From assembly GCA_963756155.1 (NCBI GenBank), contig CAVWMQ010000001.1, forward strand, positions 423,592-487,591: a stretch of DNA of 64,000 nucleotides, written 5' to 3'. Within the stretch, counting starts at the first letter, position 1, and each line of letters starts with the position of its first letter. Shown here one piece after another: positions 14,000 to 44,758 of the stretch. Below the pieces are notes generated by a model. The model made no database searches, was not told the origin of the DNA, and saw only the letters and a program-made list of their open reading frames with translations. Made by a program: the position numbers and the translations under genes. This DNA comes from an uncultured delta proteobacterium (GTDB taxonomy: Bacteria > Desulfobacterota > Binatia > Binatales > Binataceae).

Positions 14000-15407
14000 C
14001 TAAATCTCAGGCCACTTGTCGTTCCACGGGCGCGCTTGCTCGTACGCATACGACGCCTGCAGGACCAGATCTTCGCGATAGCGCTCGGCGACGATCTGCA
14101 AGCCGCACGGCAGTCCCGCGTCGGTGAATCCCGCGCGGACCGACGCCGCCGGATGCCCACTCATGTTGAACGGATGAGTGAACACGACCGTCCCCATCAC
14201 GTCGACCGGGATGCCGTTGATCTCGCTCGGATGCGGTCCTTTGGCAGGGAACGCTTCGATCGGCAGCGTCGGCGTCAACAGTAGGTCGAAGTGTCCGAAC
14301 ACGCGCTCGCACCATTGATTGAACTGCGCGCGCTCGCGGTAGGCCGCGCCGTAATGCTTCCAGGTTATGTTCGATGCGGCCTCGACGCCGCTCAGGTAGG
14401 CGCGGCCGAAGTCCTCGCGATGCTTTTCGATCCAGTCGTGCAGCGTCGCCAGCGCCTGGGTGCCTCCGACTCGTTGCCACGCGCGCGAGAGATCGACGGG
14501 CGTGTCGTCGAGCACCGTGATCTCGTGCCCCATGTCCTTGAACGCGCCGACTGCTTTCTCTACTTCGCGCGCGACGTCGTGCTGGACGATGCGGCCGAAG
14601 TGGGGATGAAACGCGATGCGCAGCTTCTTCGGCATCCGCTCGAGATTCGCGGCGTATGAAATTTCAGGAGCCGGGATCGAGTCAGGATCCGACGGATGGT
14701 AGCCGGCCGCCAGGTCGAGATGAATCGCGGCGTCTCGCACCGTGCGCGTCAGCGCGCCCAGCACCGAAGTGTCGTTCCATTGTTGCATTCCGAGCGACGG
14801 GCCGTCGGGAATTCGGCCCTTGGTCACCTTGAGCCCGTAGCATCCGACGAAGTGCGCGGGGATTCGGATCGAATCCGCCGCCATCGGAGCCGGTTGCCAG
14901 CGGTACGATGCCGCCCGCGATCGCCGCCGAGCTGCCGCCCGACGAACCGCCCGGGGTGCGCTCGAGGTTCCACGGATTGCGGGTCACGCCGAACAGCAGA
15001 TTCTTGGTGAAGTCGGTGTAGCCGAATTCGGGCGCGTTGGTCTTGCCCAGCACGATCGCGCCCGCCGCGCGCAGCCGCGCGACCTGCACCGAGTCCGCCG
15101 CGGGCAGGTTGTTGCGAAACGGTTTTGAGCCGAACGTCGTTGCGAGGCCGGCCGCGTCTTCGAGGTCCTTTACGCCGAGCGGTAGTCCGGCCAACGGGCC
15201 GAGCTCTTCGCGCCGCGCGATCTTTTCATCCATCGCGCGCGCCTCCGCCATCGCCTGCTCGGTGCGCAGCGCGCAGAATGCGTTGACCTTGGGATTGACC
15301 TGTTGGAGCCTGCGAATAGTCGCGTCCATCAGCTCGCTGGGCTTGAGCTCGCGGCGGCGAATCATCGCGGCGAGTTCGTGGGCGGGTTTCCACCATAGTT
15401 CGGCCAT
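14000..15407 (-). pseudogene. Amidase-signature family amidase interrupted by a +1 frameshift near 14873, inside the GGSSGGSxAA…GSDGGG|SIRIP catalytic signature
   Basis: Upstream ORF 14682..15407 reads …GGSSGGSSAAIAGGIVPLATGSDGGG then goes out of frame (FDPNPRAL…). ORF 14000..14884 resumes exactly with (M)AADSIRIPAHFVGCYG…. The junction sequence ggcggcggaTTcgatccg carries one extra T relative to the in-frame ggcggcggaTcgatccg. Sequencing error cannot be excluded. Confidence 0.75.
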
Positions 15408-15552
15408 CGCATTGACCTCGTGCGGGAGTTGGGGCTCGTCCGATTGCTACCTGCTATGTCCGGATACTTACTACGCGCGGACCGGATCGGGAAGCGCCGG
15501 GCTTGCGAGTTTGACACCCTAACATCCGTTAGATAGCGTTTGAGCTGACTCT

Positions 15553-20879: not shown

Positions 20880-21421
20880 GATCCAGTACGGATTCGTCAA
20901 TCGAAACTCGCAGCGTGGACTAATTCCTCGCCAAACCGCGGGCTGCGCGAGTTCGGCCTGCTGATCGTGAGATTTGAACACCTCGGCACCGCTATAAACC
21001 TGCGGCCTATCGGTCAGCATCGCCTTCTCGAGCGCCTCGATCGAGCAGGCCGAGTAGTTGTTGATGATTAGATCAAAGTAGCTGCCAAAATACGGCGGGC
21101 TGGCAGGAGCAGATAATCCTCTGAAAGCGGTGTCAGTCGAAAGCGATCTCCTTGAAGGCGCACAAAACCTAGTGATGCGTTAACCGCGAGGATGGTTTCG
21201 GCGGGACGATGGGCGATCTTGAGTGCTTCGCAGATTTCCGCAAGGCTCCGAGGCTTCTCGTGCAATAGCGTAAAGAGTCCGAGCTTGTGCGCGAGCAGCA
21301 CGGCTGGACGGCCATAGACGCTGAAGATGACGTCCCAAAGCGGCTGGTCGCCGACGCGCGGCTTGCGAATCTTATCCGCCTTGGCCATCGATCGCTTCCT
21401 CCGAGTCACGGTTCGTCGCAT
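20880..21421 (-). pseudogene. O-methyltransferase-like gene remnant: N-terminal dimerisation/winged-helix domain only, frameshifted and truncated
   Basis: LWDVIFSVYGRPAVLLAHKLGLFTLL…SLAEICEALK…ETILAVNASLGFVRL…RLTPLSEDYLL matches the N-terminal domain of plant/bacterial O-methyltransferases. The reading continues in another frame (…SPPYFGSYFDLIINNY…) and ends near 20880. No SAM-binding domain is present. Confidence 0.5.
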
Positions 21422-21464: not shown

Positions 21465-22175
21465 CTAGCGCCGGTCTTCGACCTTCTCTACTTGCGGCGG
21501 CCCATGCGCGGAGGCGAACGACGCGAGTTGCGCGTCGCCGGCGATTTGGTGCGACAAGTCCTGCAGCGACGAGTCCAGCGGCGACTGAACCGCCTCGGTC
21601 AATTCGGCCAGGCCGTCCTGGTTGGCGATATATCCATGCACCGGAAGAAACGCATCGAGGCTCACGATGTCGACCGCCACCAGCGCCGCATGCTTCGGAC
21701 TCCACATCACCGGCTTCAGATGAATCTTCGCGACGCTGGTAACCTCGGACAAAATCTGGTTGGAGCGCGAATCTTCGAACGTGATCGTCACCCGGATATA
21801 CCCATCGAGGACCCCGTATGCGGGCGTGGTCGTGATGTCTTCCATCGCGACCAAGTCGCCGTCGCGCGCGGCGCTTTCGAGGTCCGGCGAATTCGCGACT
21901 TTCTGGAAGTTATTTTTCAGCACACTCTTGATCGCACCGCTGAGCGCGGGTTGCAGCACCACCGTGCAACTGTCCTCGCTGGTGCCGCATCCATACCATT
22001 GCAGGCCCGACGGCGGCGCCTCGAGCAGCGTTACGCTCGTCGCAATCGGCCGCGGCGAATCCGGCTGCTGGTGATAGAAGCTCGCGGGCATCGGGCCCGA
22101 GGTGTGAAAGCATCCTGCCGAGCCCAAGGGCAACAAGCCCAGGCCGGCCAGGATCGCGGTGCGAACGCGCGACAC
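21465..22175 (-). CDS. Putative lipoprotein (hypothetical)
   Basis: Signal peptide with lipobox (LGLLPLGSAGC). No recognisable domain. Confidence 0.5.
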   Translation of the reverse strand: MSRVRTAILAGLGLLPLGSAGCFHTSGPMPASFYHQQPDSPRPIATSVTLLEAPPSGLQWYGCGTSEDSCTVVLQPALSGAIKSVLKNNFQKVANSPDLESAARDGDLVAMEDITTTPAYGVLDGYIRVTITFEDSRSNQILSEVTSVAKIHLKPVMWSPKHAALVAVDIVSLDAFLPVHGYIANQDGLAELTEAVQSPLDSSLQDLSHQIAGDAQLASFASAHGPPQVEKVEDRR

Positions 22176-22246: not shown

Positions 22247-23446
22247 TCAGTTGAGCTTGTAGACCCGCGCGACGTTCTCCCCCAAAATCGCGCGGCGCCC
22301 CGAGTCCTTCATCGGCGCGATCATGCCCTCGAGTTCCTCGAGATAGTTCCCCGGATGATCGGGATGCGGATAGTCGCTGGCCCAGAAAAATTTATCCTCC
22401 CCCACAATTCCCATCAGCGCCGCGATCGTGCGCTCGTCAGGGTCGGCGGAGATATAGCACTGACGGCGGAAATAATACGATGGCTTCTCTTTGAGCCTGA
22501 CGGTCGCCCCCAGCGTGGTGCCGGAGTAGATTGCATCGCCGCGATCGAGAAAGTAGCCGATCCATCCGGCCTGCGATTCCAGCACAATCGTGCGCAGCTT
22601 CGGAAAGCGATCGAATACGCCGTACTGGAAGAAGGTTCCGAACGCATGCTGCACGCCCTGGCCGGCGAACAGATCGTAATACCACGACGCCCACGCGAAA
22701 TTATCGTAGCGATGATGAATTCCGAACTCGCGCGGCTCGAAGGTCGGATGAATCGCGAACGGCACGTCGAGATCCTGCGCCGCCGCGAACACCGCGTCGT
22801 GGCGCGGGTCGCCGTGCGGCACCCGCGAAATCGTGAACGGGCACACGAACGCGCCGCGGCATCCGTCCTTGACCGCGCGCTGCAGCTCGCGCGCCGCCTC
22901 GGCCGGATCACCCAGCGACAGATGCGCGATCGGGATCAGCCGGCCGCCGGAGTCGCGGCAGAAGTCCGCGATCCAGCGGTTGTAAGCGCGGCAGTATGCG
23001 GCCGACAGTTCCGGATCGAAGAGTTCGGCTTCCCAGAGCAGCCCGATGGTCGGATACAGAATCGCCCTGGCCATCTCCTCCCGATCGAGCAGCGCCAGGC
23101 GTTCTTTCATGTTCATAGTGCCGAACGCCGCGCCCTTCATGTAAGTGTCTTCGGGGCGCGGCTGGAAGCTGCGGATTTCCTCGGCCTTCAAGTTGCCGCG
23201 CATCACCATCTCGCGAAGTTTTTTCGAGTCCTCGACGCGCTTGCCCATTCCGCCGAGCGTGCCCAGCACCCCAGGCACCGTCATCTTGGCGCGCTGCCGA
23301 TCGATCTCCAGGTACTCGAAGCCGTCGTCGCCGACCCTGATGCGCATCGCGCGCTCGCGGTACTTGGGGTCGATATATTTCTCCCACAGGTCGGGCGGCT
23401 CGAGGATGTGTCCGTCGCAATCGATCACCATGTCTGTGGTCTTCAC
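22247..23446 (-). CDS. Amidohydrolase-2 family metal-dependent hydrolase/decarboxylase (ACMSD-like TIM barrel)
   Basis: MVIDCDGHILEPPDLWEKYIDPKYRERA… start and overall architecture typical of PF04909-type amidohydrolases. Confidence 0.7.
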   Translation of the reverse strand: MKTTDMVIDCDGHILEPPDLWEKYIDPKYRERAMRIRVGDDGFEYLEIDRQRAKMTVPGVLGTLGGMGKRVEDSKKLREMVMRGNLKAEEIRSFQPRPEDTYMKGAAFGTMNMKERLALLDREEMARAILYPTIGLLWEAELFDPELSAAYCRAYNRWIADFCRDSGGRLIPIAHLSLGDPAEAARELQRAVKDGCRGAFVCPFTISRVPHGDPRHDAVFAAAQDLDVPFAIHPTFEPREFGIHHRYDNFAWASWYYDLFAGQGVQHAFGTFFQYGVFDRFPKLRTIVLESQAGWIGYFLDRGDAIYSGTTLGATVRLKEKPSYYFRRQCYISADPDERTIAALMGIVGEDKFFWASDYPHPDHPGNYLEELEGMIAPMKDSGRRAILGENVARVYKLN

Positions 23447-23459
23447 GGCCTCTACTCCT

Positions 23460-24386
23460 CTAAAAGATCGCGAGCGGGTTTACCGGCGATGCGGTCCCTC
23501 TCTCGAGAATCAGCGGCGCCATCGTGAACAGGAACTGGTAGCGATTGTCCGCCGCCGCGACGTCCGCAACCGCGTCGAGGTCGGCGTTGTCGATCAGGTG
23601 GATGCCCATCATGACCAGCGTGCCAACGTGGATCGGCAGCGGGATGCCCTGGTAGCCGCTCGGCACGGCGTCGCTCACCGCGTCGCATCCGAGCACCGCA
23701 ATTTTGCGATCGTGGAGCCACGGCAGGCACTGCGCGTCGAGCCCCGGCATCCCCTCGCGAAATGGATCCCATCCGCCCTTCACCTTTCGCCGCGCCGAGC
23801 GCCCGGTGCGAAGCATCAGCACGTCACCCTCTTCGACGTGGACCTGCTGCGCTTTCTCCGCGGCCTCGAGGTCCTCGGGATAAATTCGATCGTTCGGCTC
23901 CAGCCATTCGATCTTTTTGAGCCTTGGGATGTCGAGCAGGATGCCGCGGCTGACAACCCCCGTGCGGGTCACGTCGATCGCGCATTTCTTCGCGCCGTGC
24001 GAGCCAACTTCCTTCGCATCGAAACCGTTGTACATCTTGCCCGCCCAGAACACGTGGCAGAGCGCGTCGAGATGGGTGTTGGCCATTCCGTGCGGCGCAA
24101 TCGCGAAGTAGTCGCCCGAGTACGGCATCGGCGTGGAGAGCGCGTCGTCGCCCGCTTGCACCATCAGATGGGTTACAGGATTCGGATTGTCGGCGGCGGG
24201 GATGGTCGCGAGCGGCAGCGCCATCGAAACGGTCTGGCCGCTCTGCACCAGCTTGGCCGCGGCGGCGCGTTTGGCGTCGGTGATGAAGTTGAGGGCGCCG
24301 CGCTCGTCCTCCTTACCCCATCGGCCCCAGTTGCTGATCTTGTCGAACAGTCCTATGACTTCCGCGGGGGTGAGCTTGGTTGGCAT
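23460..24386 (-). CDS. Cyclase-family protein (kynurenine formamidase/arylformamidase-like)
   Basis: GMANTHLDALCHVFWAGKMYNGF resembles the His-rich metal site of putative cyclases. ATG at 24386 is preceded by AAGGAGA, so it is preferred over the listed 24515. Confidence 0.7.
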   Translation of the reverse strand: MPTKLTPAEVIGLFDKISNWGRWGKEDERGALNFITDAKRAAAAKLVQSGQTVSMALPLATIPAADNPNPVTHLMVQAGDDALSTPMPYSGDYFAIAPHGMANTHLDALCHVFWAGKMYNGFDAKEVGSHGAKKCAIDVTRTGVVSRGILLDIPRLKKIEWLEPNDRIYPEDLEAAEKAQQVHVEEGDVLMLRTGRSARRKVKGGWDPFREGMPGLDAQCLPWLHDRKIAVLGCDAVSDAVPSGYQGIPLPIHVGTLVMMGIHLIDNADLDAVADVAAADNRYQFLFTMAPLILERGTASPVNPLAIF

Positions 24387-24480
24387 TGTGTCGTCTCCTT
24401 GCCGGGTTGCAGTGTCGGGCCGAAGCGCGAAAAATTCGTATAGCACAGGCCGCGCGCGAGCGAGTAACTGAACGCATGGT

Positions 24481-26037
24481 ATGCTGGCGCTTCGCCGAAG
24501 GAATCTTTTGGCCAACGATTACATCGAGGCGGCGCGCGCCTACCACGAAATAACCAAGCACTCGTATACGAGCGTCCGCAGCGCCGGTCACGCGCTCGAC
24601 TGGGACTCGAAGCCGCTCGCGTACAAAATTTATCCGGAGGCGGCGTCGCTCCTGCTGCCGCGCGACTTGAGCCTTTCCGCGATGCCCGCGCTGAGCGCGA
24701 TCGCGACCGACGCGCCCGCGGACTCGGCGGCGCCGCTCGGACTCGAGCAGCTCACGCGCATCCTGTTTTGCGCCGACGGTCTGACGCGCCGCAAGCGCGT
24801 CGGCAACGAGGACTATCACTTCCGCGCCGCGCCGTCCGCGGGCGCGCTCTATCCAATCGAGATTTATCTCGCCGCGGGCGAAGTCGACGGGCTGGAGGCG
24901 GGCCTTTACCACTTTTCGCCCGCCGATCTTAAGCTGCGCGGTCTGCGCCGCGGTGACGTGCGCGCGATACTCGCGCAAGCATCCGCGAATCGACCTTCGA
25001 TCGTTCACGCACGCGCGGCGCTGGTTCTCACCTCGATTTTCTGGCGCAGCGCATGGAAGTATCGCGCGCGCGCGTATCGATATTGTTTCTGGGATGCGGG
25101 CACGATGCTCGCGAACCTGTTCGCGGCCGCATCCGCCGACGCGGTTTCAGCCGAGGCGGTGACCGCGTTCACCGACGCTCCCGTAGAAGCGCTGCTTGGA
25201 ATCGACAGCGACCGCGAGGGAGTCGTCGCGATCGTCCCGCTCGGGAGCGGCGCGCGCGAGCCGGCGCCGCCGCCCGAAATCACGCCAATTCCGTTCGAGT
25301 CGATCGAGCTGTCACAGCGCGAAGTCGTCTACGACGACATCGTAAAGATGCATCGCGAGTCGCGGCTGGTCACCGAGGCGGAGGTCCGCGCCGTGTCCGA
25401 CGCGATGCTGCCACCATCGGCACCGTCATCCGCCACGCCGGCCCGCGCGTTGAAGTTCGACAGCGTCGCTCCCGCAGATGCGATGGGCCTGGGCGAGACG
25501 ATCCTGCGTCGCGGCTCGACCCGGACATTTGCGCGCGAAGCGATTTCCGCCGAGGAGCTCGCGGCGATCCTGGCGGCGTCCAGCGCGCATCCACGCGTGG
25601 ATTTCCCGCGTCTCACCGACACGTATCTGATCGTCAACGCAGTCGATGGGATGGAGCCGGGCGCATACTACTACGCGCCCGCCACCCGCGCCGCCGCGCC
25701 CGCCTTCGAGCTTGTCAACCTGGGCAACCTCCGCGCCCAGGCTGGCTACCTGTCCCTGGAGCAGCCGCTCGGGATGGATTGCTCTGTCCTGTTGGTTTAC
25801 ATGGCCGACCTGGAACGCGCGCTAGGCGCGCTCGGTAATCGCGGCTATGGCGACGCGCACCTCGAGGCGGGGATTCTCGCCGGGCGAGCGTATCTTTCCG
25901 CCTATGCGCTCGATCGCGGTGCGACCGGTCTCACTTTCTACGACGACGATACAACCCGCTTCTTCGAACCGCACGCGGCGGGCAAGAGTCCGCTGCTGAT
26001 GGTCGCGCTCGGCGTTCCTCTTGCCCGCTCTGCCTAG
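24481..26037 (+). CDS. SagB-type dehydrogenase domain protein (nitroreductase superfamily, tandem double-domain, 518 aa)
   Basis: N-terminal YHEITKHSY motif characteristic of SagB/ThcOx-type dehydrogenase domains. Two nitroreductase-like halves (…ADGLTRRKRVG…YHFRAAPSAGALYPIEIY… and …RGSTRTFAREAIS…). Confidence 0.6.
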   Translation: MLALRRRNLLANDYIEAARAYHEITKHSYTSVRSAGHALDWDSKPLAYKIYPEAASLLLPRDLSLSAMPALSAIATDAPADSAAPLGLEQLTRILFCADGLTRRKRVGNEDYHFRAAPSAGALYPIEIYLAAGEVDGLEAGLYHFSPADLKLRGLRRGDVRAILAQASANRPSIVHARAALVLTSIFWRSAWKYRARAYRYCFWDAGTMLANLFAAASADAVSAEAVTAFTDAPVEALLGIDSDREGVVAIVPLGSGAREPAPPPEITPIPFESIELSQREVVYDDIVKMHRESRLVTEAEVRAVSDAMLPPSAPSSATPARALKFDSVAPADAMGLGETILRRGSTRTFAREAISAEELAAILAASSAHPRVDFPRLTDTYLIVNAVDGMEPGAYYYAPATRAAAPAFELVNLGNLRAQAGYLSLEQPLGMDCSVLLVYMADLERALGALGNRGYGDAHLEAGILAGRAYLSAYALDRGATGLTFYDDDTTRFFEPHAAGKSPLLMVALGVPLARSA

Positions 26038-31693: not shown

Positions 31694-32309
31694 CTAGAGT
31701 CCCGGAACCTTGGGAGTTTCCTTCCACGCAGTGCGCGCGCGGATCGCTTCCAGGTACTTGCGCGTCTTTGGGAAGTCACCGAGATTGAAACCCGCGCGGT
31801 CGATCACATTGAGCACGGGACCATAAGCGCAATCGACCAGCGTAAACTCATCGCCCAGCATCCATTTGCGGTTGGCAAGCTGGCCTTCGACGATCCTGAT
31901 CACGTCGGGTAAAGCCTTCTCGCCGCGAGCGATCGCGGCTTCGTCGGCGGGAGCGCCTGTTAGCTTCACCGCGATCCGGTTGAAGGCGAGCTCGGTCGCC
32001 GGCGGCGAGATGTGCGCGGACAGGAAGAAGAGCCAGCGCAGCGCGTCCGCACGGCCGGCCGCCGATGACGGCCACAGCTTTCCGGTCTTGTCACCGAGGT
32101 AGGCCAGGATCGCGTGCGATTCCCCACAGCGTAAGATCGCCGTCGGTGAGCACCGGTACGCGGCCAACCGGGTTGAAGGCCAGGAACTCGGGCCTACGCT
32201 GTTCGCGCTTTGTCAGATCGACCGGGACGATCTCGCAATCCAGTTTCATCTCGAGCATCGCGAAGCGGACCTTCTGCGGATTGGGTGACGGAAAATAGTA
32301 GAGTTTCAT
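31694..32309 (-). pseudogene. Glutathione S-transferase interrupted by a +1 frameshift (GGGG run near 32122-32125)
   Basis: N-terminal ORF MKLYYFPSPNPQKV…VLTDGDLTLW then goes out of frame. The C-terminal ORF resumes …ESHAILAYLGDK… (GST C-terminal domain). In-frame sequence would be ctgtgggaatcgcac; observed is ctgtggggaatcgcac. Confidence 0.65.
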
Positions 32310-37883: not shown

Positions 37884-42564
<4,681 letters not shown>

Positions 42565-44149: not shown

Positions 44150-44758
44150 CATGATTCGCCTGTACGACTACCTGCCGTCCGGAAATGGCTACAAAGTCCG
44201 ATTGCTGCTGACGCAGCTCGAAGTGCCGTTCGAGCGAATCGAGCTGGACATCAATCGCGGCGAGACGCGCACGCCCCGAGTTCATCGCGAAATTTCCCAA
44301 CGGCAGAATTCCCGCGGTGCTGTTTGAAGACGATCGCCGGCTCTTTGAGTCCAACGCGATCATGTTTTATTTCGCCGAAGGCACGCCGATGCTCTCGGAT
44401 CACAAGTTCGAGCGCGCGCGCACGATGCAGTGGCTGTTCTTCGAGCAATACAGTCACGAGCCGTACATCGCCGTCGCGCGCTTTCTCAAGATGTATCCGC
44501 AGCTGGCTGACGATCGGCGCGCCGGGATGGACGAGGATCCAGAAGCTCGGGCGCGACGCGCTGGCGGTGATGGAAGGCCACCTGGCCGAGCGCGAATGGT
44601 TCGTTGGCGGGCGATATTCGATCGCGGATATCGCGCTGTATGCCTATACCCACGTTGCGGGCGAGGGCGGCTACGATCTGGCGCCGTATCCGGCGATCCG
44701 CGCGTGGCTCCAGCGGGTCAAGCAGCAGCCGCGACACATTCCGATCACCAAGGGATAG
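44150..44758 (+). pseudogene. Glutathione S-transferase with two frameshifts
   Basis: MIRLYDYLPSGNGYKVRLLL…GETRTP then out of frame at a CCCC run (44274-44277). Resumes EFIAKFPNGRIPAVLFEDDRRLFESNAIMFY… and shifts again near 44527. The C-terminal domain …EREWFVGGRYSIADIALYAY… is in a third frame. Confidence 0.6.

Follow-up and report, generated by a model that had tools for sequence, protein, structure and literature searches.

The nearest characterised structural relatives of the protein considered here are McbC, SagB and ThcOx, which are homodimers or carry RRE or peptide-clamp domains and work with a YcaO cyclodehydratase on a precursor encoded nearby, in pathways for RiPPs (peptides made by the ribosome and modified after translation). 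In McbC, a lysine activates a tyrosine, the tyrosine removes the alpha proton and hydride is transferred to N5 of flavin mononucleotide (FMN) (PMC6395948). Since two other nitroreductase-fold flavin oxidases, BmdC (the tailoring oxidase of the bacillamide non-ribosomal peptide synthetase, NRPS) and the cyclodipeptide oxidase AlbA/AlbB, act outside RiPP pathways, alpha,beta-dehydrogenation is not limited to YcaO products. [quoted passage not shown] We analysed a window of 64,000 nucleotides from an uncultured delta proteobacterium of the family Binataceae (contig CAVWMQ010000001.1, the window being this whole stretch of DNA), in which a gene at 24481-26037 encodes a SagB-like protein of the same kind.

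The gene is the Binataceae orthologue of a large family that is already named, structurally solved and functionally uncharacterised. Like Ava_2154, with which it has 28% identity, it encodes a tandem protein of ~500 aa and stands alone, whereas BmdC, which docks on an NRPS module, and AlbA/AlbB, which form a hetero-filament, are cluster-encoded. The explanation that we favour, and judge probable from the analysis as a whole, is a stand-alone, pseudo-dimeric FMN dehydrogenase or oxidase with a single active site and an McbC-type Lys-Tyr base, acting on a substrate that YcaO does not make.

Fold and flavin site of the SagB-like protein

The SagB-like protein contains two stretches of Pfam Nitroreductase and two of the NCBIfam model TIGR03605 ('SagB family peptide dehydrogenase'; 157.7 bits, cut-off 78.4), the best of the latter covering residues 88-255, in agreement with the initial annotation, which had described a tandem SagB-type protein with two nitroreductase-like halves. 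The TIGR03605 domain and the Lys-Tyr pair, the latter by alignment only, are what it has in common with McbC, SagB and ThcOx, the FMN-dependent azoline dehydrogenases of thiazole/oxazole-modified microcin (TOMM) and cyanobactin pathways. The model for putative peptide maturation dehydrogenases, TIGR04511, reached 119.3 bits, below its cut-off of 240, and outside the two nitroreductase halves there was no Pfam or NCBIfam match, and no RRE or ThcOx-type peptide-clamp domain, the alignment to ThcOx taking in its flavin domain only. The features of the gene are as follows.

24481-26037, plus strand: SagB-like tandem nitroreductase-fold open reading frame (ORF); longest ORF 518 aa, probable coding sequence 24508-26037, 509 aa, with a TTG start
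24541-24633, plus strand: family-specific N-terminal extension, YHEITKHS...LDW..P...K.Y, residues 21-51 (YHEITKH, residues 21-27)
24646-25266, plus strand: N-terminal nitroreductase-fold half, residues ~56-262, with FRAAPSAGALYP (R115, S119), WKY (K193-Y194) and D205
25057-25062, plus strand: codons for Lys193-Tyr194, the putative catalytic base pair, aligned to Lys201-Tyr202 of McbC
25267-25485, plus strand: variable linker between the domains, residues ~263-335, with poor conservation and many gaps in the alignment of relatives
25486-26034, plus strand: C-terminal nitroreductase-fold half, residues ~336-518, with RRGSTRTF at residues 343-350 (nt 25507-25530)

Searched as a single protein (phmmer), the sequence matches PDB 3EO7 collinearly along its full length (residues 17-492 against 9-490, E 8.7e-49), and with a profile of 28 diverse relatives the match has an E-value of 3.8e-98. 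An AlphaFold (AF2) model built on the alignment of the 28 relatives has a mean predicted local distance difference test score (pLDDT) of 92.5 and a predicted template-modelling score (pTM) of 0.94, with lower pLDDT (65-75) at linker residues 310-330. In a Foldseek comparison against the PDB, 3EO7 is the only full-length match (TM 0.76/0.80), followed by the flavin domains of ThcOx, BmdC, McbC, BT_0217 and AlbAB, and the classical NfsA/NfsB-type reductases (NfsA/NfrA) rank behind this oxidase clade (E ~1e-4, TM ~0.24). The fold is well supported by these matches.

Compared with one another by hhalign, the halves prove homologous (probability 99%, E 8e-18), and each keeps what the other lacks: the N-half carries FRAAPSAGALYP and WKY and has lost the RRSxR flavin-phosphate motif, while the C-half carries RRGSTRTF and is without the RAAPS segment and the K-Y pair. 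The SagB-like protein is a fused pseudo-dimer of two complementary nitroreductase-fold halves, unlike NfsA and NfsB, which are homodimers of ~220-250-aa subunits. In comparison with McbC, SagB and ThcOx, the dimer is fused in one chain, a single active site is predicted and the N-terminal extension is unique.

The FMN-contact residues of 3EO7 are R98, P101, S102, D188, H191 and R334 (PMC7538488). In the profile alignment they map to R115, P118, S119, D205, T208 and R344, five of the six being identical, so that the predicted FMN site consists of the core of the N-half and the phosphate motif of the C-half. This cofactor site is well supported, and the complementarity of the halves leads to the prediction of one composite FMN site per chain, the second site being degenerate. 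Lys193-Tyr194 coincide exactly with Lys201-Tyr202 of McbC in the profile alignment; active-site geometry was read from alignment and not from distances in the model. Among 120 full-length family representatives at no more than 50% mutual identity, D205 is conserved in all, R115 and S346 in 119, Y194 and R344 in 118 and R348 in 115. Position 193 is Lys in 103 and Arg in 14 of them, and the Lys-Tyr of the window protein and of most of the family differs here from the Arg-Tyr of 3EO7, which is one of the Arg members. Conservation of these key residues indicates that the SagB-like enzyme has kept the azoline-oxidase machinery. Position 119 (Ser119 here, Ser102 in 3EO7) is Cys in 63 of the 120 representatives, within the motif FRAAACTGALY, and a conserved Cys beside the flavin could bear on mechanism or redox sensitivity.

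The N-terminal extension spans residues ~17-55. H22, T25, P45, K49 and Y51 are invariant in the alignment of relatives (A1) and are kept in 108-118 of the 120 members, H22 and T25 in 108 each. The initial annotation had taken YHEITKH to be diagnostic of SagB/ThcOx-type domains, a view that does not hold: the motif lies outside the TIGR03605 match, and neither the C-half nor the alignments to McbC, ThcOx and BmdC contain anything corresponding to it. 3EO7 has it in the form HYHERTKY, and the YHE.TK motif is common to both proteins; YHEITKH is a hallmark of the ~500-aa tandem family, not of SagB/ThcOx domains generally.

The 518-aa ORF is present as first described, at 24481-26037, but the protein is probably 509 aa long. 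Orthologues are called at 502-509 aa with the N-terminus MANDYIE or MGNDYIE, and the TTG at 24508 yields MANDYIE and is preceded by a Shine-Dalgarno sequence, AAGGA, at 24498-24502. The ATG at 24481 falls within a conserved intergenic box (TGGTATGCT) that lies ~25-30 nt upstream of the start codon in all orthologous loci, and residues 1-8 are the sole low-confidence part of the AlphaFold model. For these reasons the coding sequence most likely starts at TTG 24508 and not at ATG 24481.

Proposed activity and the reductase alternative

In the mechanism that we propose, the N-half would provide the retained flavin-ring pocket (R115, S119, D205) and Lys193-Tyr194, and the C-half RRGSTR, the loss of the reciprocal elements from each half leaving a single composite FMN site in each chain. 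The most likely reaction, from the analogy to McbC, ThcOx and BmdC, would be an alpha,beta-dehydrogenation in which Tyr194, activated by Lys193, would abstract a proton, a hydride would be transferred to FMN N5 and the flavin would be reoxidised by O2 or another acceptor. The substrate would be something other than a RiPP azoline made by YcaO. The SagB-like gene would be monocistronic with its own promoter, and the two hydrolase genes beside it, a cyclase and an amidohydrolase, would form a separate unit placed back-to-back with it by chance in Binataceae.

Several points weigh against this proposal. The Arg found at the position of Lys193 in 3EO7 and in 14 of the 120 members means that the Lys-Tyr mechanism may not hold family-wide, Arg233 of McbC, the proposed stabiliser of flavin N1, aligns to a variable column, and the FMN ligand H191 of 3EO7 is Thr208 in the window protein. 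Nitroreductase-fold enzymes are equally able to act as NAD(P)H-dependent reductases, and no family member has been biochemically characterised, 3EO7 itself being a structural-genomics deposit with a structure since 2008 and no publication. The negative result for YcaO described below covers the 64-kb window, and a partner gene could be encoded elsewhere in the genome. Finally, in two loci (L021 and L025) the hydrolase pair is still adjacent to the SagB-like gene despite decay of the remaining synteny.

The alternative that survives best is an enzyme of the ordinary kind that uses NAD(P)H to reduce nitro compounds, quinones or flavins in detoxification or redox stress, and whose likeness to SagB would be only ancestral. 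The nitroreductase fold, the RRGSTR flavin-phosphate motif and the replacement of Lys193 by Arg in some members are all consistent with such an enzyme, as are the Hsp20 or cytochrome c peroxidase genes that neighbour it in some lineages, although these stress genes occur in only two to three loci each. Sequence and fold are, however, much nearer to the oxidase clade than to NfsA/NfsB in the Foldseek ranking, and the near-invariant Tyr194, together with the family-specific extension, argues for a specific substrate, and so we consider an ordinary reductase unlikely.

Neighbouring hydrolases and the test of linkage

The initial annotation had joined the SagB-like gene with the divergently transcribed hydrolases in a heterocycle or aromatic-amide processing pathway, whose conserved linkage in other genomes could be tested. 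The adjoining features are the following.

24387-24507, unstranded: divergent intergenic region with two conserved boxes, invariant between variable flanks in 11 aligned Binataceae loci
24437-24446: box CGTATAGCAC, in minus-strand orientation TGCTATAC, ~50 nt upstream of the cyclase start
24477-24485, plus strand: box TGGTATGCT (GGTATG core), ~25 nt upstream of the SagB-like start
23460-24386, minus strand: cyclase-family (PF04199) metal hydrolase, 308 aa; longest ORF 23460-24515, 351 aa
22247-23446, minus strand: amidohydrolase-2 (PF04909) protein, 399 aa, 13 nt downstream of the cyclase
21465-22175, minus strand: hypothetical protein with a signal-peptide/Cys-like N-terminus, 236 aa, outside any conserved unit

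A scan of one genome per GTDB species with a query alignment of nine sequences yielded 80 loci, against which the window proteins were compared by tblastn, presence being scored within 6 kb. Three Binatus genomes have the same arrangement as the window, within a collinear block of luciferase-like monooxygenase, hypothetical protein, amidohydrolase-2, cyclase, SagB-like protein, amino-acid permease, PP2C, kinase and ammonium transporter; since the whole block is collinear, the adjacency of these genes is expected from descent alone and says little. The cyclase adjoins the SagB-like gene in 17 of the 21 informative Binataceae-type loci, the amidohydrolase lies beside the cyclase wherever the contig reaches far enough, and the two are always found together; both are missing in the remaining four (L013, L019, L024 and L026). 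Outside this group, neither hydrolase was found within 6 kb in any of 57 loci from Acidobacteriota, Methylomirabilota, Dehalococcoidia, Dadabacteria and other Binatia, and the three cyanobacterial contexts examined, four loci in all, are likewise without the pair and differ from each other and from the other loci. The expected linkage with the hydrolases is thus confined to Binataceae.

Beyond Binataceae, clustering of the neighbouring ORFs across the 80 loci gave no conserved partner. When the 109 immediate neighbours of the 57 non-Binataceae loci were compared with Pfam, 118 families were returned, none of them in more than four loci, and YcaO, Cyclase and Amidohydro_2 were not among the 25 families listed. 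The solitary habit of the gene is well supported by these comparisons. The neighbours that do recur form small groups, each confined to one lineage, namely IF-2B/MtnA-like proteins in Methylomirabilota, a TonB-dependent receptor in Acidoferrum, Hsp20 in Terriglobales and NMT1-like binding proteins with a metallo-beta-lactamase in other Binatia, as well as GNAT and cytochrome c peroxidase, and were rejected as a family-wide signal.

In three Methylomirabilota/Rokubacteria loci (L040:3126-4190, L041:4931-5995 and L055:728-1747) a same-strand gene of the IF-2B family (methylthioribose-1-phosphate isomerase-like) has its end just a few bases upstream of the SagB-like gene, which suggests a lineage-specific operon. 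In a non-Binataceae 'delta proteobacterium' metagenome-assembled genome (L075:778-7539), a unit of three genes, for a 214-aa protein, an NMT1/THI5-like binding protein and the SagB-like protein, is apparently tandemly duplicated, with the first SagB-like copy split; NMT1-like binding proteins are also found near the SagB-like gene in five other Binatia-type loci (L031, L032, L060, L073 and L081).

The cyclase most likely starts at ATG 24386, giving 308 aa, the length at which it is called in every relative, and AAGGAG precedes this ATG on the minus strand. With the revised starts, the SagB-like gene and the cyclase are divergent, ~120 bp apart and free of overlap. Within this interval the two boxes may represent back-to-back extended -10 promoter elements, one for each gene, with predicted transcription starts near 24492 on the plus strand and near 24430 on the minus strand; a simple sigma-70 consensus scan found no promoter in the intergenic region. 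In loci without the cyclase pair the TATAGCA box is gone, and upstream of the SagB-like gene the boxes are absent except for TGCTATGCT in L019. A shared operator was rejected on this pattern, the TATAGCA box having been lost together with the pair and TGCTATGCT kept, which is more in line with two separate promoters. Nowhere in the window was there an Rfam or tRNA match, so no riboswitch is indicated in the divergent intergenic region.

Of the two hydrolases, the cyclase had been described as kynurenine-formamidase-like. It does match PF04199, which it has in common with kynurenine formamidase (KynB) and isatin hydrolase, and it contains HGMANTHLDALCH, which we take to be the His/Asp metal-binding motif of the family. 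The formamidase label is less secure: there was no NCBIfam match at E<=0.01 and thus no curated formamidase model, the best PDB match is 5IBZ, an 'uncharacterized protein' (E 2.6e-40), and the 'kynurenine formamidase' names in records of the Joint Genome Institute (JGI) are automatic labels. A homology search with the cyclase returned only Binataceae-level relatives, at identities of at least 70%. The second protein is an amidohydrolase-2 enzyme, as had been proposed, by its match to PF04909, and has no NCBIfam match. It has this domain in common with ACMSD/LigW-type decarboxylases and PtmU3, with only distant kinship; its best PDB matches are PtmU3 (E 1e-24) and the LigW and 2,3-dihydroxybenzoate (2,3-DHBA) decarboxylases. 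Over residues 9-35 it has, instead of the classical HxH metal motif, an N-terminal DCDGHILEPPDLWE that aligns to SADSHVLEPDDLWE of PtmU3, and this sequence hints at a non-canonical metal site. We regard the two hydrolase genes as a two-gene unit separate from the SagB-like gene.

There is a small chance of a lineage-specific functional link with the pair in Binataceae. On a bolder reading, the ~500-aa pseudo-dimeric family would consist of RiPP-independent dehydrogenases that turn the McbC-type Lys-Tyr/FMN machinery on a substrate shared by bacteria, cyanobacteria and plant organelles, perhaps a dihydro-heterocycle among small molecules, a metabolite that has been damaged or the side chain of a protein, and the Binataceae hydrolase pair would supply or consume that substrate. 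We put this forward tentatively, as an unlikely reading that, if true, would give the first genomic handle on the function of the family.

A pathway of all three enzymes for a heterocycle or aromatic amide, divergently transcribed from a shared control region, is quite improbable. In the window, as in 17 of the 21 informative loci, the genes lie next to each other in divergent orientation, two conserved boxes lie in the ~120 bp between them, and in L021 and L025 the adjacency has been kept although the downstream synteny is lost. Yet neither hydrolase accompanies the SagB-like gene in the 57 loci of other phyla or in the cyanobacterial contexts, collinearity of the Binataceae block from the luciferase-like monooxygenase to the ammonium transporter is sufficiently explained by descent, the pair is missing in four Binataceae loci, the boxes read as separate -10 elements and not as a shared operator, and the hydrolases always travel together as a unit of their own. 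The joint pathway is left unsupported, because its inference rests on lineage-specific synteny.

The initial annotation was right that no YcaO, E1-like or precursor gene lies nearby: when every coding-like ORF of the 64-kb window was compared with Pfam, no YcaO, TfuA, ThiF/E1-like, LanB or radical-SAM protein was found, nor was there a YcaO and precursor context in the cyanobacterial contexts. That the protein is a genuine TOMM/RiPP azoline dehydrogenase which works in trans, its peptide having been cyclised by a YcaO from another part of the genome, is very improbable: TIGR03605 is above its cut-off, the Lys-Tyr pair aligns with that of McbC and the nearest characterised structures are ThcOx, McbC and BmdC, but YcaO, TfuA and E1-like proteins are absent from the window and from the families listed for the 109 neighbours in other phyla, a family-specific N-terminal extension stands where an RRE or peptide-clamp domain might be, TIGR04511 falls short of its cut-off (119 bits against 240), and the family is single-copy, highly conserved and present in plants and in Richelia, unlike accessory RiPP genes.

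The window and the family

All four ORFs described initially were found at their coordinates in the ORF listing of the window and have a composition typical of coding sequence, with third-position G+C (GC3) of 0.79-0.81 in a window of 64% G+C. The fourth, of 236 aa, had been called a lipoprotein; the ORF and its signal-peptide/Cys-like N-terminus are present, but it has no Pfam or NCBIfam match and a homologue was found only in the closest relative (L001/L007) by tblastn against the 80 loci. The rest of the window is ordinary chromosome, with genes for hisH/hisF, threonine dehydratase, acyl-CoA dehydrogenases, an amino-acid permease, PP2C, a Ser/Thr kinase, an ammonium transporter, glutamate synthase, gyrA/gyrB and ribBA.

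The SagB-like, cyclase and amidohydrolase genes are all three intact. Elsewhere in the window, three genes are frameshifted relative to intact Binatus orthologues, namely an amidase (14003-15416, minus strand, frame change near 14873), a glutathione S-transferase (31697-32309, minus strand, near 32123) and a second gene resembling glutathione S-transferase (44154-44601, plus strand, near 44280), and the gene for the large subunit of glutamate synthase (37886-42564, plus strand) changes frame twice, near 38.7-38.9 kb and near 39.9-40.6 kb. Four broken genes within 64 kb suggest assembly indel errors more than pseudogenes. The segment 19600-22200, between an AhpC/DsbD_N gene and the amidohydrolase, has a lower G+C (0.56 against ~0.64) and short hypothetical ORFs, and is the most variable part of the block among Binataceae genomes; a 117-aa ORF in it (21068-21421, minus strand) has only an O-methyltransferase dimerisation domain and is probably a gene remnant.

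A scan of 1.84 billion representative proteins gave 863 clusters at 50% identity with E<1e-30, and the best 150 of these are nearly all full-length matches of ~500 aa. Longer members show no domain beyond Nitroreductase and no informative fusions. The closest relatives, from Candidatus Binataceae/Binatus, are at 99%, 86% and then ~66-71% identity, and members at 41-48% occur in Acidobacteriota, Methylomirabilota/Rokubacteria, Dehalococcoidia, Dadabacteria and other Binatia. The window protein falls in a Binatia/Acidobacteriota-type branch, with 42-48% identity to those phyla, and 3EO7 in a cyanobacterial/plant branch, in which identity is at least 78% across Nostocales, the gene is retained in the reduced-genome symbiont Richelia and a plant homologue, Arabidopsis At1g02020, has been modelled on 3EO7 (PMC7538488). 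Existing annotation already names the proteins 'SagB/ThcOx family dehydrogenase' (PGAP) or 'SagB-type dehydrogenase family enzyme'. Literature searches returned no paper that gives a function to any ~500-aa orphan member, in keeping with the earlier statement that the function of orphan SagB-type proteins is essentially uncharacterised.

The window itself adds little, being one more orthologue of a widespread and already named family. Taken together, the data present the ~500-aa orphan 'SagB/ThcOx family dehydrogenases' as solitary, strongly conserved pseudo-dimers, with a predicted single active site and the catalytic pair of the azoline oxidases, and not as cryptic RiPP genes, and therefore they should not be counted as TOMM markers in genome mining. 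Gene neighbourhoods carry no signal here, and clues to function are rather to be sought in tractable hosts, Anabaena/Nostoc and Arabidopsis (At1g02020).

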